Assembly (NCBI GenBank): GCA_040771865.1
Contig: JAXGZF010000004.1
Span: 289,916 to 353,915 of the forward strand
Reading direction: 5' to 3'
Source of the DNA: Desulfobacterales bacterium
Lineage (GTDB): Bacteria > Desulfobacterota > Desulfobacteria > Desulfobacterales > UBA2245
DNA length: 64,000 nucleotides
In this document: positions 14,856 to 46,600 of the stretch, piece by piece
Layout of the letters: the number at the start of each line of letters is the position of its first letter
How positions within the stretch are numbered: the first letter of the stretch is position 1
Notes under the pieces: model-generated
What the model was told of the DNA's origin: nothing
Seen by the model: only the letters and a program-made list of their open reading frames with translations
The model's database searches: none
Position numbers and translations under genes: made by a program

Positions 14856-16922
14856 GTGAATGATATGTCCAGAAATTTTCATTCGATTTATTCTCACGGT
14901 TTCCTGCGCGTGACGGTAGCCGTTCCGAATGTTCGCGTGGCGGACTGCGCCTACAACGTTGAGCGCGCTTTGCAACTGGCCCGCCGCGCTTCCGAGAGCC
15001 ACGCGGCGATCGCGCTTTTTCCGGAACTGTGCATTTCGGCCTATTCCAACGAGGACCTGTTTCATCAGGACGCACTTTTGGATGCCGTTCTGTCCGCACT
15101 GTCTTTTCTGATTCAGGAAAGCCGCACCCTTTCACCCGTGCTTCTCGTGGGCGCTCCGCTCAGATTCGAGGAAAAACTATTCAACTGCGCCCTCGTGATT
15201 TACCGGGGCCGAGTGCTTGGAATCGTTCCCAAGACCTATATTCCCAATTATCGGGAGTTTTACGAGAAGCGGCAGTTTACCTCGGGACGGGATGCCGTTG
15301 GAAAGGAAGTGCAATTCCTGGGAGAAACCGTTCCCTTCGGAAATGACCTGATTTTTCAGGCGTCCAACATGCCGGGTTTTGCCCTTCATGTGGAAATATG
15401 CGAGGACATCTGGACCCCGATTCCGCCGAGCACCTTTGGCGCGCTCGCCGGCGCAACGATTCTTGCCAATCTTTCGGCCAGCAATATTACTGTGGGAAAG
15501 ACGGACTACCGGAAAGTGCTGTGCGCCTCGCAGTCGGCCAAGTGTATTTCGGCCTATCTTTATTCCGCCGCCGGGCCGGGAGAATCCACCACGGATCTGG
15601 CCTGGGACGGATACGCCGTCATTTATGAAAACAACGACCGGCTGGCGGAATCTCAGCGGTTTGCCGGAGAGGAACAGCTGATTGCGGCGGACATCGATCT
15701 GGATCGACTGGTGCAGGAACGCATGCGCCTGACCAGTTTCAACGATTCGGCCGGCGAGCACCGCCGGCGGCTTGCCCGTATGCGGCGCGTTTTGTTTGAA
15801 TTTCAGATTCCAGAGTCAAGCGTGGGGTTGATGCGTCGCGTGCCCCGTTTTCCGTATGTGCCCAGCGAGGCCGCGGTGCTCGACGAGCGCTGCTTCGAGG
15901 TTTACAATATTCAGGTCCACAGCCTGATGAAACGCCTTTCCGCAGTTGGTTTAAAGCATCTGGTCATCGGCATTTCCGGCGGGCTGGATTCCACCCAGTC
16001 GCTGATCGTCGCCGCTAAAACCATGGACCGGCTGGGGCTTCCCCGGACGAATATTCTGGGATACACCTTGCCGGGATTCGCTACCAGCGCGATTACGAAC
16101 CAGAATGCCCACCGGCTGATGAACAGCCTTGGCGTTACGGCGGACGAAATCGACATCCGCCCTTCCTGCATGCAGATGTTCCGGGATATCGGACACCCCT
16201 ATGCCGAGGGCGAACCGGTCTACGATATTACCTTTGAAAACGTTCAGGCCGGGGAAAGAACCTCCCATCTGTTCCGCCTGGCGAACCTGAATCATGCCAT
16301 CGTGCTGGGCACCGGCGACCTGAGCGAACTGGCCCTGGGCTGGACAACCTACGGGGTAGGCGACCAGATGTCGCATTACAATGTCAACGCCTCTGTGCCT
16401 AAGACCCTGATTCAGCACCTGATTCGATGGATCATTCGAACCGGCCAGTTTGACGAGGATACCGGCAGGGTGCTTCAGTCCATTGTGGACACCGAGATAT
16501 CCCCCGAACTGATTCCGGATGAAAACGGCGCCTGCGACAGGCCGGCACAGCGGACGGAGTCGGTGATCGGGCCTTACGAGCTTCAGGATTTCAATCTGTA
16601 TTATATCCTTCGATTCGGGTTCAGGCCAAGCAAGGTGGCGTTTCTGGCGCAGCATGCGTGGGGTGATAAATCAATCGGTTCCTGGCCGGAATTTCTGCCC
16701 GCGGACAAGCGCAACGAATATGATCTGACAGCCATCAAGAAATGGCTTGAGGTTTTTCTCTATCGGTTTTTCAAGATCAGCCAGTTCAAACGAACGGCCA
16801 TGCCCAATGGCCCCAAGGTGGGATCGGGCGGCTCGCTTTCTCCGCGCAGCGACTGGCGTGCGCCAAGCGATTCCGAGGCTATTGTGTGGCTGGACGAATT
16901 ACGGAACAATGTGCCCGAATAG
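14856..16922 (+). CDS. nadE: Glutamine-dependent NAD+ synthetase (long form: CN-hydrolase domain + NAD synthetase domain)
   Basis: 688-aa ORF. The N-terminal nitrilase-like domain contains FPELCISAY and EICEDIW. The C-terminal ATP-PPase domain has the GISGGLDS P-loop. Confidence 0.9.
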
Positions 16923-17197
16923 TCGTTGAGGAGTTGATGGATATCATTTTTTCGGATAAAGTTGTAATTCGGCTCTCAGAGATGGACTGCTGTGTTTAAA
17001 CCGCTTCTTCAGTGCCCGGTTTCGGCGTTTTTTGAGAACCAATGCAAGCATGATGATCTCTTTAAAATTGAAAAACAAAATTTCAGACGTTTTAAATTAT
17101 CGATGCCCTCCACCACCGGAGCATATACTCGGGGTGGCGGAGAGCATGCGGGGAAGATCGGTTGCAGGGACTGAAATCATGGCAAAAAGCGAGCAGA

Positions 17198-17401
17198 TCA
17201 CTCCGCCTTTTCTTCTTTGCTGGTTTCAAGGTACATTACCTCGGCGCCGACCGCTTTGGCGATCTGCTCAATCTCCTGCTTCCGGATATGCTCGACGTAG
17301 AGTTTCAGATCTGCGCCGCAGACGCCGATCACCCGGAACCGGGGTTTTTTTTCACCCTTTTCAACCTTGCGACGTTCACGAACAAAAATTTTTGCACTCA
17401 T
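17198..17401 (-). CDS. Small conserved basic/acidic protein, paralog A (67 aa), function unknown
   Basis: MSAKIFVRERRKVEKGEKKPRF... aligns without gaps to the 71-aa ORF at 28500..28715, with 38 of the first 58 positions identical by manual count. Conservation of a paralog pair argues that it is a real gene. Confidence 0.55.
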   Translation of the reverse strand: MSAKIFVRERRKVEKGEKKPRFRVIGVCGADLKLYVEHIRKQEIEQIAKAVGAEVMYLETSKEEKAE

Positions 17402-17509
17402 GACGCTCTCCTTTCTTCAAAAATGGATTAAGATTACCGGCTTTTCAACGAAAGCCATTGGCCCGTGTTTCATCAATTGATCTGGATGAAACCAAATTTG
17501 TATATTTAT

Positions 17510-17534
17510 ACATATATCCTCCAAGGATATATGT
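17510..17534. promoter_or_regulatory. Perfect 10-bp inverted repeat with 5-bp spacer (ACATATATCC-TCCAA-GGATATATGT), candidate PadR operator
   Basis: Read directly from the sequence. It lies 8 nt upstream of the padR-like ATG (17542), in the divergent intergenic region shared with the small-protein gene. Confidence 0.45.
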
Positions 17535-17541
17535 CAACATT

Positions 17542-17931
17542 ATGAATCAAAAAAATACAAAAGATCCCGGCTCAGGCAAAAGGCAACGTTATATTCAGCC
17601 GTCAATTCTGATGAGTCTGAAATTAAAGTCTTCCTATGGGTACGAATTAATTCAGGAAATTCAAAAACTGGGGTTTGTGGAAGGTTCGGCGCCTCCGGGC
17701 ATGATCTACCGGCACCTTCGGCAGCTGGAGGAAGAAGGCATGGTCTGCTCCGAATGGCATACCGAAGGCGCAGGGCCGGCCAAGCGGATCTACCGCCTGA
17801 CTCCGGAAGGCGATGACCTGCTATATTCCTGGATTCAGTACATGGAGGATCAGGCCCGAAAACTTAAAGAATTTGCCGAAGTGTACTATCGTGTAGCGGG
17901 CCGGGAAGGTAAAGGCCACCCGACTGAATAG
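17542..17931 (+). CDS. PadR family transcriptional regulator
   Basis: The internal start at 17542 gives MNQKNTK...RYIQPSILMSLKLKSSYGYELIQEIQKLGF...PGMIYRHLRQLEEEGMV...KRIYRLTPEG, the typical PadR winged-helix pattern. The longer ORF start at 17458 would translate the palindrome. Confidence 0.8.
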   Translation: MNQKNTKDPGSGKRQRYIQPSILMSLKLKSSYGYELIQEIQKLGFVEGSAPPGMIYRHLRQLEEEGMVCSEWHTEGAGPAKRIYRLTPEGDDLLYSWIQYMEDQARKLKEFAEVYYRVAGREGKGHPTE

Positions 17932-18575
17932 GGGGGATGAAGACTGCAAGCAGGCTGTTTTCGAGACTGCATTTTAACACTCCCGTTATTTTTTCCTTCG
18001 GAGTCTGTTTTTTGAATCACCTTGCGTTCCCGCAGTGGGATGAAACAGCCTGTTTGAATGCCATTATGGTGCACATTGGCGATCACATTTTCAATGAAAA
18101 CCCAACCCCACCCTATTCATGCAAGCATGAAAAGCCCGTTTAACCCCACCCTTCCATTCGGAGAGTCGAAACATTTGTCCGCATCTGTCAGCATCGAATA
18201 CTGATGTATGCTTTCCTGCCGAATAGCATTCCAGAAATACCTTCCAACAACAGACACATCACCCATTCTTTCAAACGGTTCAGAAAAATTTCTGAGTATT
18301 CCGACTCTATTTGCCCAACAGTGAGCCTGATTTCACCGGAACATTCAATGGATGATAATTTCAAGTCATTATTGGTAATTTAGGGTATTTTTAAAACTTT
18401 GCATTGACACGGATGATCATATAAGTTTAAAAAAACACGAATATCGGCATGTATTGATGGCGTGTCCGCTGCTATAGCCTTTCAGCCGAATTGAAAAAAC
18501 AGGCGGCATGTCATCCGCGAATGGGTTTGAACCCGAGACATCTAAACCGAAGATTTTGGTTTGCGGGAGGGAAAA

Positions 18576-20585
18576 ATGAGATTTTCGTGCAAGACAGGGG
18601 TGGCTTTGATTCTCGGATGGTTCCTGGCGTTTCCGGTGCCGGGTTTTTCGAAAACAGCGGAGGAGCAGCCGGAAGCCTACACTTTGGGAGAGGTGGTGGT
18701 CACCGGAGAGCGGGAAGGCGTCGAGGCTGTGGGAACGGTCCGGGAAATTACGGCTGAGGATATTCAGCGCAATGGGGCCAGAACACTGGACGAGGCCCTT
18801 GACCTCCTGCCGGGAATTCAGGTCCGCACAGGCAATGACGGAGTTCCCCGCGTCGATATGAGGGGCTTCCGTTCCAGGCACGTACTCCTGCTGCTCGACG
18901 GCATTCCCTTCAACTCCACTTCCGACGGTCAGTTCGACCCGACGATGATTCCCACGGAAAATATCGCCAGGATCAAGATTTCATACGGAAACCATTCGGT
19001 GCTTTACGGAGAGGGCGGACTCGGCGGAGTCATCAACATCATCACCAAGAAGGGGACCGAAGGCATTCAGGGAAAGGTGTCGGGCGAAGCCTCCGAACGC
19101 AACAAATGGCTGGGCCGTTTCAACCTTTCCGGGGCAAAAGATTCGGTGGATTTCTTTCTCGGCGGCAGCCTGATGGAATCGGACGGGTACCGGCTGTCGG
19201 ATGATTTTGAAGAGACGCCCTATGAGGACGGGGGACTGAGGGAAAACAGCGACCGGAAATACGGAAATCTGTTTGCGAATTTAGGTTACAAGGCCACGGA
19301 CAGCCTGTCGCTGGGTCTTGTGTACAATTACCTGAAGGGCGAATATGGCAAGCCGCCGTCGACCATCGACAAGGCCATGGATCCGGTTTTTGCCAAGAAC
19401 CTCAAGTATGAGCGGGTGGATGACGTCGAAGGAAACAGCGGCCAAGTATCTTTCAACTGGGATAACGGATCGCCTTTGAGTCTGCGGGGTTGGGCATATG
19501 CCAACCAGCAGGACGAGGAAACCAACCGTTACGATGACGACCGGTACAACAGCCAGAAAGCCAAGGGCGCATTTCACGAGGAAGCCAGAACGACCATCTC
19601 CGGGGCGAACCTTCAGAGCGGATGGGACATGGGTTCGGCCGGAAGGCTGACGATGGGGCTCTCCCTGGCCGGTCAGGAATTTGAATCCTCCGGATATGAA
19701 ATTCTGGATAAAAAGGGAACCAAAGGGGTTTTGGCGCTGGATAAAGAGCTCGATACTTATTCCTTAGCTCTGGAATACGAGGTCAATCCGCTGGATTCGC
19801 TTGGAATCACGATCGGGTACGGGCATCACTGGCTCAACAAGGAGGAAGGCAACGACGACGATGACGGATCATTCCTGATCGGCGCCTACTATGATCTTTT
19901 GAAGGATACAAGGCTTCGGGCATCCGTTGCCAGAAAAATTCGTTTTCCGTCCATCAAGCAGCTTTACGATGCGCCCAACGGCGGCAACATCGATCTGACT
20001 ACGGAAAGGTCGATGAATTACGAACTGGGCATCGAGCAGAATCTGCCGATGAACAGCCGGCTGACGCTGACCGGATTCTGGATCGATGTGGATGATTATA
20101 TTGAAAAAAACATTTACGCATCGGATCTCTATGAGAACTACGAAGAATACCGCTTCAAGGGGTTTGAGCTGACGGCGGAAACCCGCTTCATCGAGAACCT
20201 CATGCTCAGGGCCGGATATACCTATATGGAGACGGAGGACCGTTCGGAAGGTACTTTAAAGGACGAACTTCAGTACCGCCCGGAACATAAGATCTCGCTG
20301 GAGGCAGGCTATGATTTTGATTTCGGTCTGTCGGTTTATGCGGCCCTGCTGTATGTGACCGACCAGTATTTTTATTCCGAGGAGGCTACAGTAACACCGC
20401 CGGATAACAAAAAGGCGCTCAACGACTATACCGTGGTGAACCTCAGGCTCAATCAGAAGCTGTCGAGCAGCGGTGTGAGCCTGTACGCGGGAGCGGACAA
20501 TCTGTTTGACGAAGACTACGAGGAAAGCTACGGGTCCCCTCGGGAAGGACGGACGATGTATGCCGGAATTGAATTCGAGTTCTGA
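18576..20585 (+). CDS. TonB-dependent outer membrane receptor
   Basis: Has a signal peptide and a TonB-box/plug region (YTLGEVVVTGERE...EDIQRNGARTLDEALDLLPGIQV...MRGF). A long beta-barrel ends in the aromatic terminus ...YAGIEFEF. The start at 18576 is preceded by GGGAGGG. Confidence 0.88.
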   Translation: MRFSCKTGVALILGWFLAFPVPGFSKTAEEQPEAYTLGEVVVTGEREGVEAVGTVREITAEDIQRNGARTLDEALDLLPGIQVRTGNDGVPRVDMRGFRSRHVLLLLDGIPFNSTSDGQFDPTMIPTENIARIKISYGNHSVLYGEGGLGGVINIITKKGTEGIQGKVSGEASERNKWLGRFNLSGAKDSVDFFLGGSLMESDGYRLSDDFEETPYEDGGLRENSDRKYGNLFANLGYKATDSLSLGLVYNYLKGEYGKPPSTIDKAMDPVFAKNLKYERVDDVEGNSGQVSFNWDNGSPLSLRGWAYANQQDEETNRYDDDRYNSQKAKGAFHEEARTTISGANLQSGWDMGSAGRLTMGLSLAGQEFESSGYEILDKKGTKGVLALDKELDTYSLALEYEVNPLDSLGITIGYGHHWLNKEEGNDDDDGSFLIGAYYDLLKDTRLRASVARKIRFPSIKQLYDAPNGGNIDLTTERSMNYELGIEQNLPMNSRLTLTGFWIDVDDYIEKNIYASDLYENYEEYRFKGFELTAETRFIENLMLRAGYTYMETEDRSEGTLKDELQYRPEHKISLEAGYDFDFGLSVYAALLYVTDQYFYSEEATVTPPDNKKALNDYTVVNLRLNQKLSSSGVSLYAGADNLFDEDYEESYGSPREGRTMYAGIEFEF

Positions 20586-23358: not shown

Positions 23359-24096
23359 ATGAGAGTATTTCTGGGATTTGACGACACCGACACGATTGAT
23401 GCGGACCGGGGAACCGGCAAGCTGTCCAGATGGTTCGGGTATGAACTGCCCGAAGAGGTCCGTCTATGGGCCGTGGTGCGCCAGCAGCTTCTGGTTCATG
23501 AGGATATACCCTACACTTCCCACAACAGTTCGGCCTGCGTGGTCATGGATACGCCCGATGGCTATCCTTCGGACCGCATCATCGACCGGGCGGTCCGCCA
23601 TCTCCAAGCTCATTATCTGGAGGGAAGCGATCCGGGGATCTGCATGGCATGCGAGGATGATCCGGGGCTATCGGAGCTGATGAATTTCGGGATTTCGTGC
23701 ACCCGGCACGTGGTTTCTCAGAAAGATGCTCTAAAGGCGGCTTCGGGCGGCCATATTCATTTGTCCGGCCATGGCGGCACCCATGACGGAATTATTGGAG
23801 CCGCCGCCGCCGTGGGCTTGACGGCATCCGGCTGGGCAGGACGCTTTATAGAATTCGGCAGGCTCCGTGAATTTCCGGATCCAGTGACCGTATCGGAACT
23901 GGAGCAAAAGCAAATCCGGGTCATGTCTCTTGAAAAAAATGCAAACCAGCCGTCTCCCGAAGATCGAGTGATGACCCATGGCTGGCTTCGTCCCCGCCTG
24001 ATCGGCGGATATCCGGTCGTGATGGTCAAACACATTCAAGAAGACCTGTGGGAAATCGTCAGCGGCAGATCCCACAAAAAGAAATCGGAGGAATGA
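23359..24096 (+). CDS. Soluble protein of unknown function; N-terminus reminiscent of the TiaS/DUF1743-type G-x-DDTD motif
   Basis: 245-aa ORF with a good RBS (GAGGAG). The N-terminus is MRVFLGFDDTDTIDADRGTGKL. It is the last gene of the receptor-ECF cluster. The similarity call comes from memory of the motif only. Confidence 0.4.
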   Translation: MRVFLGFDDTDTIDADRGTGKLSRWFGYELPEEVRLWAVVRQQLLVHEDIPYTSHNSSACVVMDTPDGYPSDRIIDRAVRHLQAHYLEGSDPGICMACEDDPGLSELMNFGISCTRHVVSQKDALKAASGGHIHLSGHGGTHDGIIGAAAAVGLTASGWAGRFIEFGRLREFPDPVTVSELEQKQIRVMSLEKNANQPSPEDRVMTHGWLRPRLIGGYPVVMVKHIQEDLWEIVSGRSHKKKSEE

Positions 24097-24360: not shown

Positions 24361-24600
24361 GTGTCAAAAACACGGATGAATACGCGGGAAGTCGCGGAAT
24401 ATTCGATGTCGCCGATAAACAAGGTCTATGTCCTAGTCAAATCCAAGCTGATTCCGGCCATGCGGATAACCGGAAAGCGGCTTTTCCCCAGAAATCTAAT
24501 TGACGAATATTCCCGGTCCGGTTTTTCCGAGGCGCGGCAGAGAAACCGGAATACGGTGCTGAATCAGAACACTTTTTTGAAAAGTCGGTGCAGGCCTTGA
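24361..24600 (+). CDS. Stand-alone excisionase/MerR-type (HTH_17-like) DNA-binding protein
   Basis: 79-aa ORF. MNTREVAEY...VYVLVKSKLIPAMRITGKRLFPRNLIDEY follows the helix-turn-helix plus wing pattern of excisionase-family HTH domains. The start is GTG 24361 or ATG 24376, and the RBS is weak. Confidence 0.5.
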   Translation: MSKTRMNTREVAEYSMSPINKVYVLVKSKLIPAMRITGKRLFPRNLIDEYSRSGFSEARQRNRNTVLNQNTFLKSRCRP

Positions 24601-24790: not shown

Positions 24791-25645
24791 ATGAAAAGGC
24801 TGCTTATTTGTCTGTTGATGTTTGTCGGGTTTGGGTTTCAAGAAGCGGCAAATGCCCTTGACGGCAGTCAGTTTATTCTTCTGTCCTCAACCATTGGCCC
24901 AATCGATTCCGGCATTGTCGAAGTTCTGGAAAACCAGTTTGAAAAGGAAACCGGCATTCGGGTGCGCCATGTCGGCGCCGGAACAGGGGCGGCGTTGAAT
25001 ATTGCCCGCAAAGGCAGTATCGACCTCGTGATGGTCCATGCCAAATCCCTGGAGGAAAAATTTATTCAGGAAGGGTTCGGAACCCAACGAATTCCTCTGA
25101 TGTACAACGATTTCGTTCTGGTCGGACCCGCCTCGGATCCTGCCGGCATTCGGGGAATGAAAACAGCCGCGGAAGCGCTTCGCCGGATTTCAGAGAAAGG
25201 CGTCGCCTTTATCAGCCGGGGAGACAAGTCGGGAACGAACGTGGCCGAACTGGAACTCTGGGAAAAGGCGGGGCTCAAGCCCTCTGCCCCTTGGTACGCA
25301 ATCTATGAAAAGGGGTCCGAAGGCAATTCCGCGACGTTGAAGTATGCCAGCCAGCAGGAGGCTTATACGGTTATTGACAGGGCCACCTTTCTCGCTCTAA
25401 AGGATCAGATTCAACTGGTTATCCTCGTCGAAGGCGATGAAGCCATGCTGAACTACATCAGCCTTATCCCAGTCGATCAGAAAAAATTCAAAACGGTCAA
25501 CGCGACCGACACGATGCGTTTTGTAACCTGGCTGACCGACCCGAAAAAGGGACAGGCCGTCATTCGGGACTTCGGAAAAGAAAAATACGGAGCTCCGCTG
25601 TTCTTTCCCAATTCGGAAGACTGGCAAAAGTCTAAAGGAAAATAA
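24791..25645 (+). CDS. Periplasmic tungstate/molybdate-binding protein paralog (TupA-like, divergent anion-binding motif)
   Basis: 284-aa ORF with a signal peptide, collinear with the TupA at 25767. Both share the VRHVGAGTGAAL / IAVGSGQAM block, the VHA(K)S/VHSPAAE block, DFVLVGPASDPAGI and FISRGDKSGT. The N-terminal TTTSTQDSG is replaced by SSTIGPIDSG. Confidence 0.75.
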   Translation: MKRLLICLLMFVGFGFQEAANALDGSQFILLSSTIGPIDSGIVEVLENQFEKETGIRVRHVGAGTGAALNIARKGSIDLVMVHAKSLEEKFIQEGFGTQRIPLMYNDFVLVGPASDPAGIRGMKTAAEALRRISEKGVAFISRGDKSGTNVAELELWEKAGLKPSAPWYAIYEKGSEGNSATLKYASQQEAYTVIDRATFLALKDQIQLVILVEGDEAMLNYISLIPVDQKKFKTVNATDTMRFVTWLTDPKKGQAVIRDFGKEKYGAPLFFPNSEDWQKSKGK

Positions 25646-25766
25646 CGGATTCAATTCATCATATTCAAACCTGCGCCAAAAAGGTGCGAACAAACTTGTC
25701 CATTTTGATGTATTACTTGATCAATTTAATTGAACGGATCACAAAAATTTATTAAGGAGGATGAAA

Positions 25767-26654
25767 ATGAAGCTTAAAAAGCGTACAATCTGTTACCGTT
25801 ATCTGGGATTTATTGCACTCCTGTGTCTGATCACGGGTCTGGCAAGCGTCACATCTGCTTTTGCGGCTGAACCGGCGCAGAAAAACATTATTCTGGCCAC
25901 TACGACCAGCACTCAGGATTCCGGTCTTCTGGACGCCCTGATTCCGATTTTCGAAAAGGAAACCGGTTATTTTGTCAAGACGATCGCCGTCGGTTCCGGT
26001 CAGGCCATGGCCATGGGAGAGAAGGGTGAAGCAGATGTCCTGCTGGTCCATTCACCTGCAGCGGAAAAAAAATTTATGGAAGCGCAAAACGGAATCAACC
26101 GCCGCCTCGTCATGCACAATGACTTCGTGATCGTGGGTCCGCCCGCCGATCCTGCCGGCATCAAAGGCTCCAAGACTTCTCCGGAAGCTTTTACGAAGAT
26201 TGCCGGCACCAGTTCCCTGTTTATTTCCCGGGGCGACAACTCAGGAACGCATTCCAAGGAAAAGGGGATCTGGAAAGCCGCGGGGCTTAATCCGGAAGAG
26301 CAGCCTTCGAAATGGTATCAGCAGACCGGACAGGGCATGGGCCATACCCTCAATGTCGCGGCCGAGAAACTGGGTTATACGCTCACTGACAGGGGAACCT
26401 GGCTTTCTCTGCAGAAAAACCTCGGGCTTCCCGTTCTCATGGAGGGCGACCCGATCCTGCTGAACGTCTATCACGTCATCGAGGTCAATCCGGCCAAGTG
26501 GCCGAAAGTCAACGCACCCGGCGCCCGTGCTTTCTCCGACTTCATGGTTTCGCCCGCGACCCAGAGTATCATCAAAACTTTCGGCGTGGACAAGTATGGA
26601 TCTCCTCTGTTTTTCCCGGATGCGGGCAAGAAAGTGGAGGATCTCGGGAAATAA
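25767..26654 (+). CDS. tupA: Tungstate ABC transporter substrate-binding protein
   Basis: Has a signal peptide and ILATTTSTQDSGLLDALIPIFEKETGY, the Thr-rich motif typical of TupA. Also contains FISRGDNSGTH. It is followed by a permease and an ATPase. ATG 25767 has better RBS spacing than 25761. Confidence 0.85.
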   Translation: MKLKKRTICYRYLGFIALLCLITGLASVTSAFAAEPAQKNIILATTTSTQDSGLLDALIPIFEKETGYFVKTIAVGSGQAMAMGEKGEADVLLVHSPAAEKKFMEAQNGINRRLVMHNDFVIVGPPADPAGIKGSKTSPEAFTKIAGTSSLFISRGDNSGTHSKEKGIWKAAGLNPEEQPSKWYQQTGQGMGHTLNVAAEKLGYTLTDRGTWLSLQKNLGLPVLMEGDPILLNVYHVIEVNPAKWPKVNAPGARAFSDFMVSPATQSIIKTFGVDKYGSPLFFPDAGKKVEDLGK

Positions 26655-27353
26655 ATGGATCTGATTCTTGAAGGCATCCTGAAGGCCGTAGCGCTGCTTG
26701 TTTCCCTGGATCCGGAAGTCCTGGGAATCACCGCGCTATCATTGAAAATTTCAGGAACAGCCACCCTGATCAGTCTTTTTCTTGGCGTTTCAACGGGAAC
26801 CGTGGTGGCCCTCACCCGGTTCCCGGGCCGCAAGATTGTCGTCAGTCTGATCAATACCGGCATGGGGTTGCCGCCGGTGGTTGTGGGTCTCTTTGTCACG
26901 ATCTTCCTCTGGCGAAACGGGCCGTTGGGCTTTCTGCAAATCCTCTACACGCCCACGGCGATTATTCTTGCCCAGGCGATCATTGCTACCCCCATCATCA
27001 GCGGAATCAGCCTGGCCGCGATGCAGAACCTTCCCGCCAACCTCCGTCTTCAGATCCTGGCGCTCGGGGCCACCAGACTGCAGATGCTCTGGCTTCTCAT
27101 ACGGGAAGCCCGCCTGCCCCTGCTGGCCGCCGTCATGGCCGGATTCGGCGGCATCATTTCCGAGGTGGGGGCTTCCATCATGGTGGGCGGCAACATCAAG
27201 GGCTATTCACGGGTTCTCACCACAGCCACGGTCATGGAAACGGGTCGGGGAAACTTTGACGTGGCCATTGCGCTGAGCGCTATTCTCTTGCTGCTGGCCT
27301 TTCTGATCAACTACCTGCTGACACGGATTCAGCAACGGGAGCGTCCCCGATGA
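26655..27353 (+). CDS. tupB: Tungstate ABC transporter permease
   Basis: 232-aa polytopic membrane protein with an EAA-like loop (ALGATRLQMLWLLIREARLPL), located between tupA and tupC. Confidence 0.85.
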   Translation: MDLILEGILKAVALLVSLDPEVLGITALSLKISGTATLISLFLGVSTGTVVALTRFPGRKIVVSLINTGMGLPPVVVGLFVTIFLWRNGPLGFLQILYTPTAIILAQAIIATPIISGISLAAMQNLPANLRLQILALGATRLQMLWLLIREARLPLLAAVMAGFGGIISEVGASIMVGGNIKGYSRVLTTATVMETGRGNFDVAIALSAILLLLAFLINYLLTRIQQRERPR

Positions 27354-28450
27354 CGGCCGCCAGTCCCCTTCTTCAGGTCAAAAATATTGTGGTCAAGCGG
27401 GGCGGAATTACTGTTCTGGATATCCCCGACTTTACGCTCAAGCAGGGGGAGGTTCTGTCCCTGCTCGGGCCGAACGGCTCCGGGAAATCCACGCTGCTTC
27501 TGACCTTGTCCAGCCTTTTGAAGCTGCACCAGGGCAAACTGATCTTCAAGGGCCGGGAGATTGACAGCCGCCGGAATGCGCTGGACTATCGACGGCAGAT
27601 CGCCGTCGTATTTCAGGACCCGCTTCTTTTGGATACGACGGTGCTGGACAATGTGGCTTCCGGCCTGAAAATCCGGGGAGTAGAGAATATGAAACGTTTG
27701 CGGATCGCGGAAGAATACCTGGAACGCCTGGGAATTGCCCATCTGGCCAAACGATCCGCATCCAAACTCTCCGGAGGAGAAGCCCAGAGAACCAGTATCG
27801 CCCGGGCCTTTGCGACTCGCCCCACCATCCTTTTTCTCGATGAACCCTTTTCCGCTCTGGATCCGCCCACGCGCGAAGCTTTGATCTCGGATCTCACCCG
27901 CATTCTTCGGGAAACGGACACCACGGCGGTGATTGCCACGCATGATCAGATGGAGGCCCTGCGCCTTTCCAGCCGCATGGCCATTATTCAGCAAGGAAAG
28001 ATCGCTCAGACGGGCTCTGCAGAAGAGGTGATGAATCATCCGGTTAATGAATTTGTCGCCTCCTTTGTCGGAATGGACACGGTCCTGGCCGGCAGGGTCC
28101 GGGAAAACCACGACAAGAACAGAATGATGATTGCCGTCGGCGATCGGGAGATCGAGGCCGTGGGGAATTTCCCTCCGGGAGAGCAGCTCATCTGTTGCAT
28201 TCGTCCCGAGAACGTAACTCTCTCCACGGATTCACCCGAAGAACAGAGCAGCGCTCGAAACAATTTTTCGGGCCGGATTGTGCGCATCGCACCCCACGGA
28301 CTTTTTTACCGCGTTGATCTGGACTGCGGTTTTGAGCTCACTTCTTACATCACCCGTACATCACTGGACAGCCTGGCGCTTCGGGAAGGTATGAAGGTCA
28401 AGGCCTCCTTCAAGGCCACCGCCGTTCATGTGATCCGGAAAACGACATGA
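27350..28450 (+). CDS. tupC: Tungstate ABC transporter ATP-binding protein with C-terminal TOBE-like domain
   Basis: 366-aa ORF with Walker A GPNGSGKST, signature LSGGEAQR and Walker B ILFLDEP. A C-terminal extension of about 120 aa ends ...GMKVKASFKATAVHVI, which is TOBE-like. Confidence 0.85.
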   Translation: MTAASPLLQVKNIVVKRGGITVLDIPDFTLKQGEVLSLLGPNGSGKSTLLLTLSSLLKLHQGKLIFKGREIDSRRNALDYRRQIAVVFQDPLLLDTTVLDNVASGLKIRGVENMKRLRIAEEYLERLGIAHLAKRSASKLSGGEAQRTSIARAFATRPTILFLDEPFSALDPPTREALISDLTRILRETDTTAVIATHDQMEALRLSSRMAIIQQGKIAQTGSAEEVMNHPVNEFVASFVGMDTVLAGRVRENHDKNRMMIAVGDREIEAVGNFPPGEQLICCIRPENVTLSTDSPEEQSSARNNFSGRIVRIAPHGLFYRVDLDCGFELTSYITRTSLDSLALREGMKVKASFKATAVHVIRKTT

Positions 28451-28499: not shown

Positions 28500-28715
28500 A
28501 TGGCAGGCAAAATTTTTTATCGGGAACGCCGGAAAGTCGCCGAAGGGGAAAAGAAGCCGCGGTTTACTCTCGTCGCCGTCACGGGTCTTGATCTCACCTT
28601 GTATCCGAAACACATGCGCAAACAGGAACTGGAACAGATTGCCGAAGCGGTCGGCGCGGAATTGATTCTGCTGAAAGACGTCGAAAAAGGCGAGGAAGTG
28701 GAAGTTAAGGCATAA
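28500..28715 (+). CDS. Small conserved protein, paralog B (71 aa), function unknown
   Basis: MAGKIFYRERRKVAEGEKKPRF... is a paralog of 17198..17401. It sits 49 nt after tupC and 15 nt before the Mos-like gene. AAGGAGG lies upstream. Confidence 0.55.
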   Translation: MAGKIFYRERRKVAEGEKKPRFTLVAVTGLDLTLYPKHMRKQELEQIAEAVGAELILLKDVEKGEEVEVKA

Positions 28716-28730
28716 ACGGAGGGGATTATC

Positions 28731-29561
28731 ATGGGGCTTTGGCGCGAAAGAGACGGTCGACGTCTGCATGTTAAGAGTAAACTGATGGGGGAAAGCCTGA
28801 TCAGCAAATCGTTCATAAAAAGTCTCACCGTTGCTCCGCAGCGGAGGCTTTTCCCGGATGTGAATATTATCAAGATCGGAGGCCAGTCCATCTGCGACCG
28901 GGGCGTCAAGGCCCTTCCCCCGATAATTGAAGAAATTGTGGCGAACAAGAAAGCGCACAAGATGCTCATTACGACAGGGGGCGGGACCCGCAGCCGGCAT
29001 ATTTATTCCATCGGCCTCGAGCTGGGTATGCCGACGGGCATCATTGCCAAATTCGGCAGTTCCATCTCGGAACAGAACGCATTGCTGGTGTCCACACTGC
29101 TGTCCTCCTGGGGCGGAATCAAGATCGGACATGATGAGGTCATCAAACTGTCAACCTACTTCGCTCAGGGCTGCATCCCCGTCATGCACGGGATGCCCCC
29201 CTATGATTATTTCGCTTTGCCGGCAAAAGGATGGCGCATCCCCATTCACCGAACGGATGTGGGCACCCTGATTCTGGCGGATCTGATCGGCGCACGCAGC
29301 TGCATCTACGTAAAGGATGAAGAGGGTCTCTATACGGATGACCCCAAAAAGAATTCCGACGCTAAATTTATCTCCAAAATCAGCGCGTCGGAACTTCTGG
29401 CACATGACTTTGACGATTTGATCATTGAACGGCCCTGCCTTGAGATTCTGCAGAACAGCGAGGTCATAAACAGCATTCAGGTTATCAATGGTCAGAATGC
29501 AGGCAACATCACCCGGGCATTGAAGGGTGAACATGTGGGAACCATCATTCATAAAGGATAG
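28731..29561 (+). CDS. Molybdenum storage protein subunit homolog (MosA/MosB-like, amino-acid-kinase/UMP-kinase fold)
   Basis: 276-aa ORF. IIKIGGQSICDRG, TTGGGTRSRHIYS, GMPPYDYF, HRTDVG, YVKDEEGLYTDDPKKN and GNITRALKGEHVGTIIH match my recollection of the conserved blocks of Azotobacter MosA/MosB. The length also matches. Confidence 0.75.
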   Translation: MGLWRERDGRRLHVKSKLMGESLISKSFIKSLTVAPQRRLFPDVNIIKIGGQSICDRGVKALPPIIEEIVANKKAHKMLITTGGGTRSRHIYSIGLELGMPTGIIAKFGSSISEQNALLVSTLLSSWGGIKIGHDEVIKLSTYFAQGCIPVMHGMPPYDYFALPAKGWRIPIHRTDVGTLILADLIGARSCIYVKDEEGLYTDDPKKNSDAKFISKISASELLAHDFDDLIIERPCLEILQNSEVINSIQVINGQNAGNITRALKGEHVGTIIHKG

Positions 29562-29932: not shown

Positions 29933-31051
29933 TTAGAGCTCGGCGACGATTTTGCCCGTGACGGCGGCTTCGTAGCCGGGAATCGCGTCGATCTCTCTGC
30001 GCAGCGCTGCGGACTGGAGAACGTCCAGAAGGATCTTGACCGTGGGGTGGCCGATCAAGTCGCCGGGAATGACCAGATCGCATCTGACGGCTGTAATGGA
30101 CACAAAATCCAGGCCAAAGGCTTCGGCAATGGCCCTTAATCCCAGGGCGGCATCGGCTACGTTGCAGGCAACGCGGTAGGCGCCTTCTCGGTGGGAGGTC
30201 ACCTCGTTCCGATATCCATTGATGGCGTGTGCATTCACACCGGCGCGCTGCAGACAGTCGTCCAGCAGAATCCGCAGGGCCGCGCCCGGCTCTCGGTTGA
30301 CAAAGCGAACCACGGGCCTGGCGAGATCTGCTGCGGAATGAATGCCCAGGGGGTTGCCCCTGGCCACCATCAGGCCCTCTTCCAGAAGAGAAAATCCCAG
30401 AATGCTTCCGCGCACTCCAGCCAGTTTCTGGCCGGCCAGGACCACATTGGACTCTGTTTTACCCGTGTTGTGCAGGTGGATTCCCGCCACGTGAGTCAAG
30501 CCTTCGGCCAGAGCGTTGAGGGCGCGATGAGTTGAGGCGAACCGGCAGTGTACGCGCGCATCGGGCGCCATACGGGAAACGTAATGGGCGAGGATCTCAA
30601 AGGCCGGATCGCAGCCCATCAGAATGAGGGTTTTATCGAGACAGTTCGCAGGTGAAAAAATCTGAGCGCTTTTTCCGTCCCGGGTCAACACGCCGTCCGC
30701 CGGGCGCAGTCCGAATCCAACGGACTCGGGGCCCTGCAGAGAAATACCCACCAGTCGATCACGGACCATCCCCAAAGCCAGCCGGGATGATGGCGCCTTT
30801 TGACCGTTGATTATATGGACGGGCCGTGTGTCCGGCGGTTCCTGCTCGGCGAACAGGTCTTCCACCCGGCAGTTGAAAATGCGGGCCAGCCGAAGCGCGA
30901 TGGCGGTATTGGGCAGATAGCGCCCGGATTCAATGTCGTAAACCGCCTGGCGCCGGACGTTGATTTCCTCGGCCAGCTTTTCCTGAGACCATCCCCTGGC
31001 CAGTCGGTACTGCTTGACCTTGCACGTAATGGTATTGTTTTGTCGGGTCAT
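29933..31051 (-). CDS. Transcriptional regulator: N-terminal XRE-type HTH + C-terminal periplasmic-binding-protein-like (molybdate/tungstate-type) sensor domain
   Basis: The HTH is VKQYRLARGWSQEKLAEEINVRRQAVYDIESGR. The C-terminal domain of about 270 aa resembles PBP-like domains fused to HTHs near Mo/W genes (assigned from memory of the PF12727-type architecture). The start is ATG 31051 (alternative 31078). Confidence 0.72.
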   Translation of the reverse strand: MTRQNNTITCKVKQYRLARGWSQEKLAEEINVRRQAVYDIESGRYLPNTAIALRLARIFNCRVEDLFAEQEPPDTRPVHIINGQKAPSSRLALGMVRDRLVGISLQGPESVGFGLRPADGVLTRDGKSAQIFSPANCLDKTLILMGCDPAFEILAHYVSRMAPDARVHCRFASTHRALNALAEGLTHVAGIHLHNTGKTESNVVLAGQKLAGVRGSILGFSLLEEGLMVARGNPLGIHSAADLARPVVRFVNREPGAALRILLDDCLQRAGVNAHAINGYRNEVTSHREGAYRVACNVADAALGLRAIAEAFGLDFVSITAVRCDLVIPGDLIGHPTVKILLDVLQSAALRREIDAIPGYEAAVTGKIVAEL

Positions 31052-31315
31052 AGGCCCTTTCTGTTCAAGTTTTCTCATCTATCTGATGAAATCTTATAAA
31101 ATTGTATTGACCAATTTCTTTTCGTATGCAATGAGTTTGTGTCAAATGACAATTAAAAACGTCATAATTGCTTAAATTATACTTTAAACATTGTATAACG
31201 TTATTTGGATACATATTGCAACAGCGGTTTTCAAGCGGTCAGCCCGAATGGCATCGAATATCGCAACAGATGCCGCATGTCATTCAGACTGTCTCAATGT
31301 AGAAATTCACAGGAA

Positions 31316-34820: not shown

Positions 34821-35111
34821 CCGGGCGTTTGAGAAATATTAAGATTCAAACCTTTCTCGGACGCAATTTGCATTGGATGCAATGCATCCGAATGTATTGA
34901 TCTTCAGCTATCCCTCTCCAATCGATTCCTGATTTCTCGATCCATTTTTTATTATGTTTTTTATTGACATCGAGGGATTGTATGATATTTAACTGTGCCT
35001 TAAATGACATATATCAGGATCGGCATATCATGACTTCATTCAGGCCGCAAATTTGGTTTTGCACCCTGATGAAATGAATCGGCAATAAATGTGTTGCAAA
35101 AGGAGTTTCCA

Positions 35112-36785
35112 ATGTTTAACGGCAATACCCGCATAATTTCGGAAAATCATCAAATCGGTTCGTATTCCTTTGAAGAGTATATGGATCTGGTCAAGTCATT
35201 TCACGGGTATGCTGCACCCGGCGTTATCATTGGAGGCTTCATGGTCGATCTGGCGCTGAAAAATCTTCCGGACGGAGAGTTTTTCGATGCCGTCTGCGAA
35301 ACAACCGCATGCCTGCCGGACGCTATTCAGCTGCTGACGCCCTGCACGTTCGGCAACGGCTGGCTCAAGGTTCTCGACTTCAACCGGTATGCGCTGACGA
35401 TGTACAACAAGGAGAACGGAAAGGGCGTGAGAGTTGCCCTGAGCACTTCGGCGGTTCGCGCCTGGCCCGATATCAACAATTGGTTTTTCAAGCTTAAAAC
35501 CAAGAAGGAACAGGACCCGCAGCGACTGAACGAGGCGATCAAGAATGCAGGCCATAGCATATGCAAGATGGAACAGGTCGAGGTGAATTCCGAGGTTCTG
35601 AAGCGCAAATCCAGAGGAAACGTCGCCGTTTGCGCCATATGTGGGGAATCCTTTCGAACGAACGGGGGAACCGTCTGCCGTGCCTGTCACGGGGAGATAT
35701 ATTACCGTATTTTCAGCGGCGCCGACCAGACCCAGGCGCCGCTCGAAATGCCCGCGCTCAAATCCACACCCGTTGAACAGGCCGTGGGGCTCGCCGCACT
35801 TCATGACATGACGGAAATCATTCCCGGCAAGTTGAAGAAACCGGCTTTTAAACGGGGACAGGAGCTTTCCATCGGAGACGTCTGCCACCTGCAGCGGATG
35901 GGGAAAAATCATGTTTATCTGAGTCAGGAAAATCCGGTCGGAGATGAATGGGTCAACGAGGATCAGGCGGCAATAGCCTTTGCCGCGGCCATGACAGGGC
36001 CTGGCGTTGCCGTCGGCGGCAAGCCCAGCGAAGGCAAGGTGAATCTGGAAGCGACCTTGGACGGGCTTCTGGCGGTTGAGGTCGAGCAGTTGAAACGGTT
36101 TAATCTGGTTCCGGAAGTCATTTGCGGATGCCTGAAAAACTTTACTCAGGTCTCCCGGGGCCAGAAATTTGCGGCCACCCGGGCCATTCCTTTGTTCATG
36201 CGGCGGGAAAATTATACCCGGGCTATAGACGTTCTGGCTGAAAAGCCGTTGTTTAAAGTCCTTCCAATGCGCAAGGCGTCCGTCGGCCTGCTGGTGACCG
36301 GCGAGGAAGTGGCCAAGGGGCTGATTGAAGACAGATTCATTCCGATTCTGGAAAAGAAGCTCAAACGGTATGACTGCCGGATTGTCGGAAAGGAAATCGT
36401 ACCTGACGATCGCGGAAAAATTTCATCCGCCGTAACTCGCATGATTCAGTCCGGTGCCGATATGGTGATCGCAACAGCGGGTATGTCGGTGGATCCGGAT
36501 GATTGCACGCGTCAGGGAATTATCGATGCCGGCGCCACCCAGATTCTCTACGGCGCTCCGATTATTCCCGGCGCCATGATTATGCTGGCTCAGATCAACT
36601 CGGTTCAGGTTTTTGGCGTTCCGGCATGCGCCCTGTATTTCGATGTCACCAGCTTCGATCTCCTGTTGCCCCGGCTTCTGGCGGGCGTTCCTGTCACAAG
36701 GGAGGATCTGGCGCAGATGGGACACGGGTCTTTCTGCCAGGAATGCAAGGTCTGCGTCTTTCCCCGTTGTCCGGTCGGCAGATAA
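35112..36785 (+). CDS. Fusion protein: FmdE-like domain with zinc ribbon + MoeA/MoCF-type molybdopterin-binding domain
   Basis: The N-terminal FHGYAAPGVIIGGFMVDLAL...CLPDAIQLLTPCTFGNGWL is FmdE-like. It is followed by CAICGESF...CRAC. The C-terminal LLVTGEEV...IVPDD...IATAGMSVDPDD is the MoCF-biosynthesis fold signature. The start at 35112 has an AAGGAG RBS. Confidence 0.68.
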   Translation: MFNGNTRIISENHQIGSYSFEEYMDLVKSFHGYAAPGVIIGGFMVDLALKNLPDGEFFDAVCETTACLPDAIQLLTPCTFGNGWLKVLDFNRYALTMYNKENGKGVRVALSTSAVRAWPDINNWFFKLKTKKEQDPQRLNEAIKNAGHSICKMEQVEVNSEVLKRKSRGNVAVCAICGESFRTNGGTVCRACHGEIYYRIFSGADQTQAPLEMPALKSTPVEQAVGLAALHDMTEIIPGKLKKPAFKRGQELSIGDVCHLQRMGKNHVYLSQENPVGDEWVNEDQAAIAFAAAMTGPGVAVGGKPSEGKVNLEATLDGLLAVEVEQLKRFNLVPEVICGCLKNFTQVSRGQKFAATRAIPLFMRRENYTRAIDVLAEKPLFKVLPMRKASVGLLVTGEEVAKGLIEDRFIPILEKKLKRYDCRIVGKEIVPDDRGKISSAVTRMIQSGADMVIATAGMSVDPDDCTRQGIIDAGATQILYGAPIIPGAMIMLAQINSVQVFGVPACALYFDVTSFDLLLPRLLAGVPVTREDLAQMGHGSFCQECKVCVFPRCPVGR

Positions 36786-43621: not shown

Positions 43622-46600
43622 TTATGACAGTTCGGTCAACTTGTCCGCCTTTTTGATGTTGACAAGGCAGGCTTTGTATTCAGGAATGGAGGTGTTCGGA
43701 TCGCCCGCCGAGACGCACAGACGGTTGGTGGCGTCGCCCACTCCGGGAGTAGTCCAGCCAAAGGCAAAGGGCATTCCGATTTCATGAACGGTCTTGCCCT
43801 GAATCTTGAACGGGGTCATGCGCATAGTGACCATGGCCACGGCCTCGACCCTTCCTCTGGCGCTTTCGACAATCACGCCGTCGCCGTTCTTGATTCCCTT
43901 TTCCTTGGCCAGTTCCTCGCTCATCTCTACGTAAAGCTGGGGTTCGGCTTCCAGCAAAGAGGGCACGTTTCTCGTCTCCCCGCCGCCGCACCAGTGTTCC
44001 GTCAGGCTGTAGGTGGTTAGAACGATGGGATACTTCGAATCGCCCGGGACTGCCCGCTTGTCGAGTTCGCTTTCAATCACCTTGGCGCAGGGGTTGTTGA
44101 GCTGTTTGGAGAAGGGGTGCTTCTTGACCGGGGTTTCGATCGGTTCGTAATGCTCGGAGAACGGCCCTTCCTCGCGTCCGGGGCCGTAAAGCGCGCCGTG
44201 CCCTTCCTTCTGCATGATGAAGGGGTATTTGCCCTGTCCGGTTGCCATCGGAGGCCAGCCGCCGTCAGGCACGTCGCCGATCCACTTGTTGCCATCCCAC
44301 TCGATGACAACTCGGGTCGGATCCCAGGGCTTGCCGTTCAGGTCGACCGAAGCCCGGTTGTACAGGACTCTCCGGTTGACCGGCCAGCACCACGAATAGC
44401 CTGGGAAGAGGCCGATTTTGGCCTGCAGGTCGGTCTGGGACAGGCCGCGATTCTTCATCTTGTTGCCCGCCTCTTCAGTATAGCTTCCGGTGTAGAGCCA
44501 GTTCCGGGAGCTGGTCGATCCGTCGTCGGCCAGATTGGCGAAGCTGGGCACAAGGGACCCTGCCTTGTATGTCTTGTCTTTAATGGTGGTGTCTTTGAGG
44601 AAGAAACCGTTGCATTCTTTCGCGATTTGTTCCGCATCGAAATGGGAGGGCCAGTTCAGGTTCACAATCGGTTCCGGAAATACGCCGCCTTCTTCCCTGT
44701 AAAGCTTTCGCACCGCGTTCATGATTTCCACCATGGTCTCGCCCATGGATTTGGATTCGCCTGCCGGTTCGGCGGCCTTGTAATGCCACAATACCCAGCG
44801 TCCGCTGTTGCTGATGCTGCCTTCCTTTTCCACGCGGTGGCAGGCTGGGAACAGGAACACTTCGGTTTTGATGTCCTTGGGGTTGACCCCGGGCCGGTGC
44901 CAGAAATCGGTGGTCTCATTTTGATGGATTTCGGAGATGTACAGCCAGTCCAGGTTGTCCATCGCTTTCCGGACCTTGGTTGTGTTGGGTATGCTCTGGG
45001 CCGGGTTGTGCGCCCAGACCGAGCCGCCCTTGATTTTCCCCTTGTACATCCGGTCGAATATATGCAGGTGTGAATAGTCGCCCTGCACGAGACCTTTTGG
45101 CGTATCGCCCTTCGGAACCCAGCTATAGGCGAAATCGTTTTCCTTTGTCGCTGCGTCGCCGAACCAGGATTTCAGCAGGCTGACCACGTATTTCGGGCGG
45201 TTCTGCCACCAGTTGGCGCTCAGGGGATCCTTGGTGACCGGTGTGTTGGCCTTGTTGTAATCGGCCAGGGTGGGCCAGTGTGACCGGGGTACCGAATGAT
45301 AGCCGGGCAGGATATGATAGAGAATGCAGTGGTCGGTGGAACCCTGAACGTTGGGCTCGCCGCGCAGCGCGTTGATGCCGCCGCCGGCAACGCCGATGTT
45401 GCCCAGCAGCAGCTGAACGATCGCGCTGGTCCGGATGTTCTGAACGCCGACCGTATGCTGGGTCCATCCCAGGGCGTACATGACCGTTCCGGCCTTGTTC
45501 TTTTGTCCGGTCGCGGCATACGTTTCATACACCTTGAGCAGATTTTTTTCTGAAACGCCGGTGATCGCCGAAACATTCTTTAAATCGTACCGGGAGTAGT
45601 GTTTCTTCAGAAGCTGGAAAACGCATCTTTTATTCTTGAGAGTCTTGTCTCTTTTCGGAACTCCGTTGGCGTCCACATCAAACGCCCAGGCTTTTTTGTC
45701 GTAGGTGCTCAAATTCTTGTCAAAGCCGGAAAACAGGCCGTCTTTGAAACCGAATTTTTCGCCGACGATAAACGATGCGTTGGTGTATTCCGTTACGTAT
45801 TCCTTGAAGTATTTTTCTTTGTCGATAATGTACTTGATCATGCCGCCCAGAAACGCGATATCCGTTCCGGAGCGAAGGGGCACGTGAAAATCGGCCCGTG
45901 CCGAGGTTCTGGAGAATTTGGGGTCCACATGGATGATGGTCGCGCCTCTTTCCTCCCTGGCCTTCATAACCCATTTGAAACAGATGGGGTGATGCTCGGC
46001 GGCATTGCTGCCCATAATCAAGGCACAGTCCGTGTTTTTAATATCAATCCAGTGATTGGTCATCGCGCCGCGTCCGAACGACTCTCCCAGAGCCGCAACA
46101 GTTGCGCTGTGTCAGATACGGGCCTGATGATCCATGTGGACGACGCCCATGGCTCGCAGCGCCTGATGAACGATGGCGCATTCCTCGTTGCTCATCTGGG
46201 AGGAGCCCAGGTGAAAAATTTCCTCCACCCGGTTGACGACCTGTCCGCTTTCATTGGTGGCTTTAAAGTTTTTGTCGCGGGTGTCCTTGATCCGCCGCGC
46301 CAAATTTTCCAGCATCCACTCCCAGCTCTTTTCTTCCCACTTGTCGCTGTACGGAGCGCGGTACTTGGGCTTCAGGACTCTGTGGTGGCTGTTGATCATG
46401 GAATTCATGGTCGCGCCTTTTGCGCACAGGGCGCCTTCGCTGACCGGATAGCCCGGATCGCCTTCGGTGCTCACAACCTTGCCGTCCCTCACATGCGCAA
46501 TGTAATGGCAGCAGACTGAACAGAACGGGCAGATCGAGATGACTTCCTTGGCGCCCTTGATCTTCAGCTCCTTTGCATAGGCTTTCGCGGGTCCCAGACC

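Follow-up and report, generated by a model that had tools for sequence, protein, structure and literature searches.

What does a protein of 67 amino acids (aa) do that is encoded twice among molybdenum and tungsten (Mo/W) genes, once divergently from a PadR-family regulator and once behind an uptake operon? The question is raised by a stretch of 64,000 nucleotides (nt) from a Desulfobacterales bacterium (contig JAXGZF010000004.1, positions 289,916–353,915; this whole stretch is referred to here as the window, and coordinates are counted from its first letter). Sequence comparison places the small protein in an unannotated family of ~65–75 aa proteins. Judging from gene neighbourhoods, its invariant partner appears to be a homologue of MosB, the beta protein of the Azotobacter metal store MoSto, usually accompanied by a protein that resembles the kinase part of TiaS; PadR belongs to only one of the two architectures that we found. 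The explanation that we favour, with moderate confidence, is that the small protein is a core part of an Mo/W module of anaerobes, binds the MosB-like protein and, in the architecture called type A below, is switched by PadR. The genes on which the argument turns are the following.

17198..17401, minus strand: small protein, paralogue A, 67 aa with an ATG start (from the open reading frame (ORF) call)
28500..28715, plus strand: small protein, paralogue B, 71 aa, in an operon behind ABC genes for tungstate/molybdate and immediately ahead of the MosB-like gene
28731..29561, plus strand: MoSto-beta-like (MosB-like) protein of the AA_kinase fold (Pfam AA_kinase), 276 aa, partner of paralogue B

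In the protein collection, clustering at 90% identity gives 676 clusters of ORF A homologues, almost all with a length of 66–75 aa and the label 'hypothetical'. A scan of one genome per species yielded 259 small-protein loci, and an exhaustive profile search 166 clusters at 50% identity. Most of the organisms that carry the family are Desulfobacterota (Desulfobacterales, Desulfatiglandales, Syntrophobacterales and Syntrophales), and a few belong to Syntrophomonadaceae or SAR324; the closest genome, that of Desulfobacteraceae bacterium UBA2245 (L001), shows 94% identity and identical synteny. We defined the family by a length of ~60–90 aa and the core IF.RER.K....G...PRF..V...G.DL.....H.RK.EL..IA...GAE.V.L, which is present in both A and B; the motif of paralogue A is KIFVRERRKVEKGEKKPRFRV..G.DL..Y..H.RK.E. 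In a set of 35 members, 17 positions never vary (I5, F6, R8, E9, R10, R11, K12, G16, E17, K19, P20, R21, G29, D31, H38, R40 and E43), and in 76 diverse members the conserved core consists of R8, R10, P20, R40 and E43. An earlier, sequence-only reading of this DNA could not place the protein in any family, and neither could we: A and B had no match in Pfam (E ≤ 0.1), NCBIfam, PADLOC or PHROGs, a PDB sequence search and Foldseek were equally negative (see below), and Pfam at E ≤ 10 on the 76 diverse members returned no recurrent family and no TOBE domain (PF03459/PF08402). Our literature search found nothing on this small protein.

The partner is revealed by the gene neighbourhoods, for which ORFs were called and clustered in 80 genome loci and the outcome was checked by tblastn. 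A MosB-like gene adjoins the small gene in 77 of these loci. The linkage is just as tight from the other side, since among 80 metagenome loci drawn by their MosB gene (78–94% identical to the window copy) every one of the 77 whose flank is long enough carries a B-type small gene immediately before MosB and in the same orientation. Two architectures can be distinguished. The canonical type A order is TiaS-like (+), PadR (−), small (+), MosB-like (−), whereas type B is an operon of TiaS-like, small and MosB genes, and none of the 77 reverse-sampled B-type loci has a PadR gene within 3 kb. Each kind of small protein goes with its own kind of MosB: we counted 72 loci that pair A-small with A-MosB, 80 that pair B-small with B-MosB and only 5 mismatches. 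Distant members of the small-protein family also adjoin AA_kinase or TiaS-like genes, and the distant locus L081 has all three. Because the paralogue pairs co-diversify and the adjacency is near-absolute from both directions, the partnership with MosB appears to be specific and is probably physical.

The MosB-like protein itself is readily recognized. The window copy matches the beta subunit of MoSto in PDB (1.6e-68) better than the alpha subunit (8.5e-47) and shares 45% identity with Azotobacter MosB in a gap-free alignment of 256 aa; its gene starts after a gap of 15 nt from the end of ORF B. An A-type MosB is beta-like as well, so that both clades are. MosB homologues form more than 7,900 clusters, and the window carries a single copy, no second MosB-like gene having been found in it.

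Some loci show other combinations of these genes. At positions 5999–9149 of L012, a Desulfobacterales metagenome-assembled genome, tupABC, small B and MosB B are followed by PadR, small A and a convergent MosB A; the two MosB clades there are both beta-like and might form a mixed hexamer analogous to alpha-beta MoSto. In four Firmicutes loci (L019, L021 and L028 from Syntrophomonadaceae, and L060, which is perhaps mis-binned) the small gene is closer to type A and the MosB gene closer to type B; the two genes are co-directional and there is no PadR. Such two-gene loci may represent the ancestral form of the module. In the convergent arrangement the stop codons of the small and MosB genes are 2–95 nt apart; a terminator or antisense logic between them was considered and dropped, the hairpins being inconsistent across loci.

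The usual third member of the module is represented in the window by one gene.

23359..24096, plus strand: TiaS-kinase-domain-like protein, 245 aa, located away from both small genes

This protein had no match in Pfam, with only a faint TiaS_TCKD signal. Its homologues, 2,825 clusters in all, make up a large bacterial family without annotation, some members of which are mislabelled TiaS or DUF1743 in some sources. Its AlphaFold2 model (predicted local distance difference test, pLDDT, 86.8) was matched by Foldseek to 5xob (E 4e-9), 3amt (1e-8) and 3u02, the E values of the three ranging from 4e-9 to 2e-6, all with probability 1.0; the alignment covers the N-terminal kinase and ferredoxin-like part of TiaS (~165 columns, 24% identity), and the motifs D8-D9-T10-D11 (DDTD) and G18-T19-G20-K21 are invariant in the family. 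In 43 of the 45 B-type loci with at least 1.3 kb of upstream sequence, its gene immediately precedes the small and MosB genes. Among loci of at least 6 kb, it is present in 45 of 66 of type A and 19 of 21 of type B.

An enzyme in this position that retains the DDTD and GTGK motifs and the TiaS kinase fold could have the small protein as its substrate or carrier. The small protein, phosphorylated on His38 or another invariant residue, would then relay the modification or the energy of ATP to the MosB-like protein and would be a reaction intermediate, not a structural subunit. Its exceptionally conserved charged residues, along with His38, would suit that role. We nevertheless consider it unlikely: the TiaS-like gene is missing from about one-third of the longer A-type loci and adjoins neither small copy in the window, and His38 is not invariant across the wider family. 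Moreover, we know of no TiaS-type enzyme that modifies a protein.

The control of small A involves the following features.

17542..17931, plus strand: winged-helix regulator of the PadR family (Pfam PF03551), 129 aa, encoded divergently from small A
17510..17534, no strand: perfect 10-5-10 palindrome ACATATATCC-N5-GGATATATGT (in full, ACATATATCCTCCAAGGATATATGT), the inferred PadR operator
17509..17537, minus strand: small-gene promoter, with a −35 element TTGACA (17537..17532), a 17-nt spacer and a −10 element TATGTA (17514..17509)
17477..17506, plus strand: candidate padR promoter TTGATC-18-TATATT, a weak candidate from a consensus scan only

The PadR ORF matches PF03551 over residues 22–93 (E 1.5e-16; 60.6 bits against a cut-off of 27), has a median identity of 63% across the loci, and is divergent from and adjacent to the small gene in 74 of the 80 loci. 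The sequence-only reading had noticed the palindrome as an operator candidate in front of the PadR gene, and we located it 7 nt upstream of the PadR ATG (17542). Even when as many as three mismatches are tolerated, the 64 kb contain its core pattern a single time, compared with 0.11 occurrences expected from shuffles. More telling is its conservation: it is kept in all 74 loci with a divergent PadR, where the intergenic consensus is TTGACATATATCCTT-n-AAGGATATAT, and in the matrix built from these loci T7, A8, T11, A21, T24 and A25 are invariant, the rest of the arms is conserved to at least 85% and the centre is free. The −35 hexamer TTGACA is conserved at 63 to 73 of the 74 loci, depending on the position, with TATAT(a/t) exactly 17 nt after it in the 74-locus position matrix and the ATG of the small gene at a median distance of 87 nt downstream of TTGACA. 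As these two elements flank the palindrome 17 nt apart, the palindrome fills the spacer of a predicted sigma-70 promoter that drives the small gene, and on these grounds it is very probably the PadR operator. From the weak candidate promoter of padR, transcription would start inside the palindrome, which would point to autoregulation. The proposal that PadR would sit on the spacer palindrome and so repress both the small-gene promoter and that of padR is well supported; PadR binding and the direction of regulation are what we infer from this arrangement.

How far does the regulon extend? A scan of the window and the 80 loci with the position matrix gave a single site at each locus, none in the window besides the palindrome, and as the only extra one weak match in L022; the PadR regulon therefore appears to consist of the small gene and padR. 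The sequence-only reading had proposed a single regulon of small protein, PadR and possibly the downstream receptor cluster. The first part is supported by the conserved promoter palindrome, whereas the second is not: the TonB receptor gene (18561–20585) lies 630 nt downstream of padR, has a promoter-like site of its own and no second operator, and a receptor occurs near the module in just 3 of 80 loci, in differing orientations. The 630-nt gap (17932–18560) contains no convincing gene; the promoter-like site is at 18332–18359.

PadR might also be taken for the partner of the small protein. The small gene alone carries the predicted PadR operator in its promoter, and the divergent pairing at 74 of 80 A-type loci could suggest that the small protein is a co-repressor or anti-repressor of PadR in a feedback loop, from which MosB would merely benefit downstream. 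The divergent gene and its predicted operator are indeed conserved, but the constant neighbour is the MosB-like gene (77 of 80 and 77 of 77 loci from the two directions) and not PadR. The small gene persists without PadR within 3 kb in 77 of 77 B-type loci, the Syntrophomonadaceae have small and MosB genes with no PadR, and the small paralogues track the MosB paralogues, all of which makes a role as PadR partner distinctly improbable.

The predicted structure of the small protein bears on another alternative. The AlphaFold2 model (pLDDT 79.5, predicted TM-score 0.65) consists of a long beta-hairpin (strands 3–9 and 21–28), a helix (41–51) and a final strand (53–58), and the low-confidence loop of the hairpin coincides with the invariant RRKVEKGEKKPR segment. 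The two halves of the protein are of opposite charge, residues 1–41 being basic (isoelectric point (pI) 10.4) and the remainder acidic (pI ~4.3). In PDB, a profile search picked up only a beta-alpha-beta motif of 21 residues shared with thermosomes (E 0.075), and Foldseek had no significant match. The basic half, the top Foldseek matches, which are those to ribosomal S16 (E 0.2, TM-score 0.31; not significant), and the few nucleotides (2–95) between convergent stop codons would be in keeping with a small protein that binds nucleic acid via its basic hairpin and controls the convergent or downstream MosB post-transcriptionally. S16 has KKRPFY in its hairpin where the small protein has KKPRFR, but an alignment by hhalign with Escherichia coli S16 reached a probability of only 0.5% over 12 columns, and we rejected this kinship. 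Nor is there a conserved RNA or DNA element in the 5′ untranslated regions of the small genes or between the stop codons, and Rfam had no match in the whole window at the gathering threshold or in 16900–18700 at E ≤ 1. Nucleic-acid binding is accordingly a very unlikely explanation of the family.

All of this presupposes a translated gene, for which the two copies and their relatives provide ample evidence. The gene of paralogue A is preceded by a ribosome-binding site.

17407..17415, minus strand: Shine-Dalgarno sequence AAAGGAGAG of paralogue A, 5 nt upstream of its ATG (read from the sequence)

A tblastn search of the window with ORF A found a single paralogue, at 28500..28673 (65.5% identity, 38/58 ungapped, E=1e-22), reproducing the 38 identities in the first 58 positions that the sequence-only reading had counted between the 67-aa and 71-aa proteins. 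The similarity of A and B at the DNA level is restricted to the coding sequence, with no alignment between their flanks, and the proportion of differences at synonymous sites (pS) is 0.85, compared with 0.22 at non-synonymous sites (pN). Since the similarity is confined to coding sequence and the synonymous sites are saturated, the duplication is not recent. Across 78 family genes the median pS is 0.81 versus a median pN of 0.17, and the differences fall at third (98,171), first (37,050) and second (18,799) codon positions. A GGAG/AGGA Shine-Dalgarno motif precedes 127 of 132 family genes, and 130 of 132 start with ATG. With pN far below pS, third-position bias and a conserved Shine-Dalgarno motif and start codon, the comparison indicates that the small ORF is a real translated protein under strong purifying selection, as had been supposed from its retention in two copies. 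The two findings that would have told against it, a lack of homologues outside this genome and a duplication including non-coding flanks, were not made: there are 676 homologue clusters and 259 genome loci, and the flanks do not align. The notion that the ORF encodes no functional protein and that the conserved feature is an RNA element or leader peptide, which has only the small size of the ORF in its favour, is effectively refuted already by the pN/pS of ~0.2, the saturated synonymous sites, the predominance of third-codon differences, the conserved ATG and Shine-Dalgarno motif, and protein-level homologues in distant phyla.

We thus return to the small protein as part of a module with the MosB-like protein, in which, to judge from its neighbourhoods, it would most likely regulate a MosB-type store of Mo/W or be a subunit that partners it. 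The module would comprise the small protein, a MoSto-beta-like protein of the AA-kinase fold and usually a TiaS-kinase-like protein. In type B, the small and MosB genes would be co-transcribed, here after tupABC and elsewhere after the TiaS-like gene. In type A, the small gene would be transcribed by itself, and the 10-5-10 palindrome would be the spacer of its sigma-70 promoter, TTGACA-N17-TATnnn. A PadR dimer produced from the divergent gene would occupy the palindrome and repress the small gene, and padR, with its start site in or beside the same palindrome, would be repressed as well, until a signal tied to Mo/W status relieved the repression. The small protein would then bind its cognate MosB-like hexamer, the invariant basic loop of its beta-hairpin (R8-E-R-R-K...G-E-x-K-P-R21) contacting either the anionic metal-oxide/ATP site or an acidic surface, and would thereby control the ATP-dependent loading or release of stored Mo/W; the TiaS-like enzyme may add another ATP-dependent step.

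Several observations weigh against this reading. In type A loci the MosB gene is convergent and hence does not share a transcript with the small gene. Neither in the window nor in the close relative UBA2245 does a MosB gene adjoin copy A. The invariant acidic residues and the Gly/Pro residues of the loop suggest a specific contact with protein or nucleic acid, not simple binding of a polyanion. The ligands of PadR proteins are typically organic molecules, not oxyanions. Finally, no informative natural fusions exist among the longer family members: those of up to 215 aa have frameshift-like or low-complexity extensions.

The position of copy A deserves particular attention. A convergent MosB-like gene follows copy A in ~70 other loci, and in the window its place is taken by NadE (NAD synthetase, 14856–16922), with no detectable MosB remnant beside copy A (16923–17197); UBA2245 is arranged in the same way. 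With no MosB beside it, small A is an 'orphan' under predicted PadR control and must act on the distant MosB or on something else. If the partnership model is right, it would act in trans, on the single MosB of the window or on a copy outside it.

A bolder version of the model can be offered only tentatively, as possible but less than probable. The beta-only MoSto homologues of anaerobes would be obligate three-part machines, in which the basic ~70-aa protein serves as an obligatory gate or adaptor on the MosB-like cage and the TiaS-like protein provides ATP-dependent activation, and together they would form a very widespread, hitherto unrecognized storage-and-release system for W/Mo whose release arm is PadR-switched in Desulfobacterota.

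The module is scattered in the window, with PadR and small A at 17.2–17.9 kb, the TiaS-like gene at 23.4 kb, and tupAABC, small B and MosB at 24.8–29.6 kb. The uptake genes before paralogue B form one block.

24791..28450, plus strand: two TupA-like binding proteins, a permease and an ABC ATPase with a TOBE domain (Pfam PBP_like_2, ABC_tran + TOBE), for Mo/W uptake

Across the loci, the neighbours of the module include TupA/ModA-type ABC systems, the molybdate transporter MOT1, TOBE proteins, TunR-like regulators of the helix-turn-helix (HTH) plus PBP type and MoeA-like proteins. The window also holds an FmdE-MoeA protein, a ModA-type binding protein and two molybdopterin oxidoreductases. A 564-aa protein encoded at 35091–36785 (+) joins FmdE to a treble-clef zinc finger and a MoeA-like MoCF_biosynth domain, and related MoCF_biosynth proteins (cluster 12) turn up repeatedly close to the module elsewhere. 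The tup-small-MosB operon is flanked by TunR-like regulators, an HTH_17 fragment (24361–24600) and a 381-aa HTH_3 + PBP_like protein (29933–31078, minus strand), which are distinct from PadR and are likely to regulate the uptake genes in response to oxyanions. At 43622–46678 (−), a 188-aa ORF with an Fe4S4 domain and an 813-aa ORF with the molybdopterin domains are one gene with an in-frame TGA in HQARI*HSATVAALGESFGRGAMTNHW, the classical selenocysteine site of the catalytic subunit of formate dehydrogenase.

Sulfate reducers, syntrophs and degraders of aromatic compounds run their central metabolism on W or Mo enzymes, among them formate dehydrogenases, aldehyde oxidoreductases and class II benzoyl-CoA reductase. 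To our knowledge, the buffering of Mo/W in these anaerobes is barely known, and the MosA/MosB hexamer of Azotobacter is the sole characterized cage-type store. The present analysis couples MosB homologues, of which there are thousands of clusters, to a TiaS-like kinase and a small protein that lacks annotation; in one of the architectures this small protein alone would be controlled by a predicted PadR operator, which is sharply defined. The outcome is a concrete, directly testable three-protein system with a ready-made genetic switch, and two large families of 'hypothetical' proteins are given names and contexts.

Parts of this system resemble well-characterized ones. The 245-aa protein has the predicted fold of the N-terminal kinase and ferredoxin-like domains of TiaS, the archaeal tRNA-Ile2 agmatidine synthetase, with an invariant DDTD. 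Unlike TiaS (~420 aa), it is too short to hold the OB and zinc-ribbon domains that bind tRNA, is bacterial and is linked to Mo/W genes, not to tRNA modification. The small protein invites comparison with the molbindins and TOBE-domain storage proteins, such as Mop and the Tub of Eubacterium limosum, both of which have TOBE folds. Like them, it is small (~7 kDa), is encoded beside Mo/W transport genes and would be dedicated to Mo/W homeostasis (for Tub, see PMC11980592). It differs in being unrelated in sequence and predicted fold: it has no TOBE match, and its model has three main strands and one helix instead of an OB-like TOBE barrel.

Autoregulated PadR repressors with a palindromic operator in a divergent promoter include PadR/padC of Bacillus subtilis, LmrR/lmrCD of Lactococcus lactis and PhaQ of Bacillus megaterium. 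The 129-aa winged-helix protein would fit this pattern, with a perfect inverted repeat that overlaps the target promoter and adjoins its own start codon, and its best resemblance in NCBIfam, below the cut-off, is to PhaQ. The predicted operator is different, ATATATCC-N5-GGATATAT, whereas the dyad reported for phenolic-acid PadRs is ATGT-N8-ACAT, and the target is a small protein of an Mo/W module and not a detoxifying enzyme or pump. Our literature search found nothing on a PadR linked to Mo/W.

The closest parallel is MoSto of Azotobacter vinelandii, an (alpha-beta)3 hexamer of MosA and MosB, the products of two homologous genes, for which we know of no described small subunit. The partner encoded in the window is like it in its 45% identity to MosB, its AA_kinase/UMP-kinase fold and its place among genes for Mo/W uptake and cofactors. 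Unlike in Azotobacter, both clades found here are beta-like, with no alpha-type gene adjacent, and each MosB-like protein is paired with a basic protein of ~70 aa and usually a TiaS-like one; metal storage by these proteins is putative. The metal in MoSto, over 100 Mo atoms, or W, is kept in the form of polyoxometalate, and its loading requires ATP hydrolysis (PMC6448029), and in 2019 MoSto was described as having no known homologues (PMC6448029); our literature search found nothing on MoSto homologues in anaerobes. Compared with that system, the new elements would be a beta-only MoSto-type protein, its small partner, its TiaS-like partner and a dedicated PadR switch, with functions predicted as described above.

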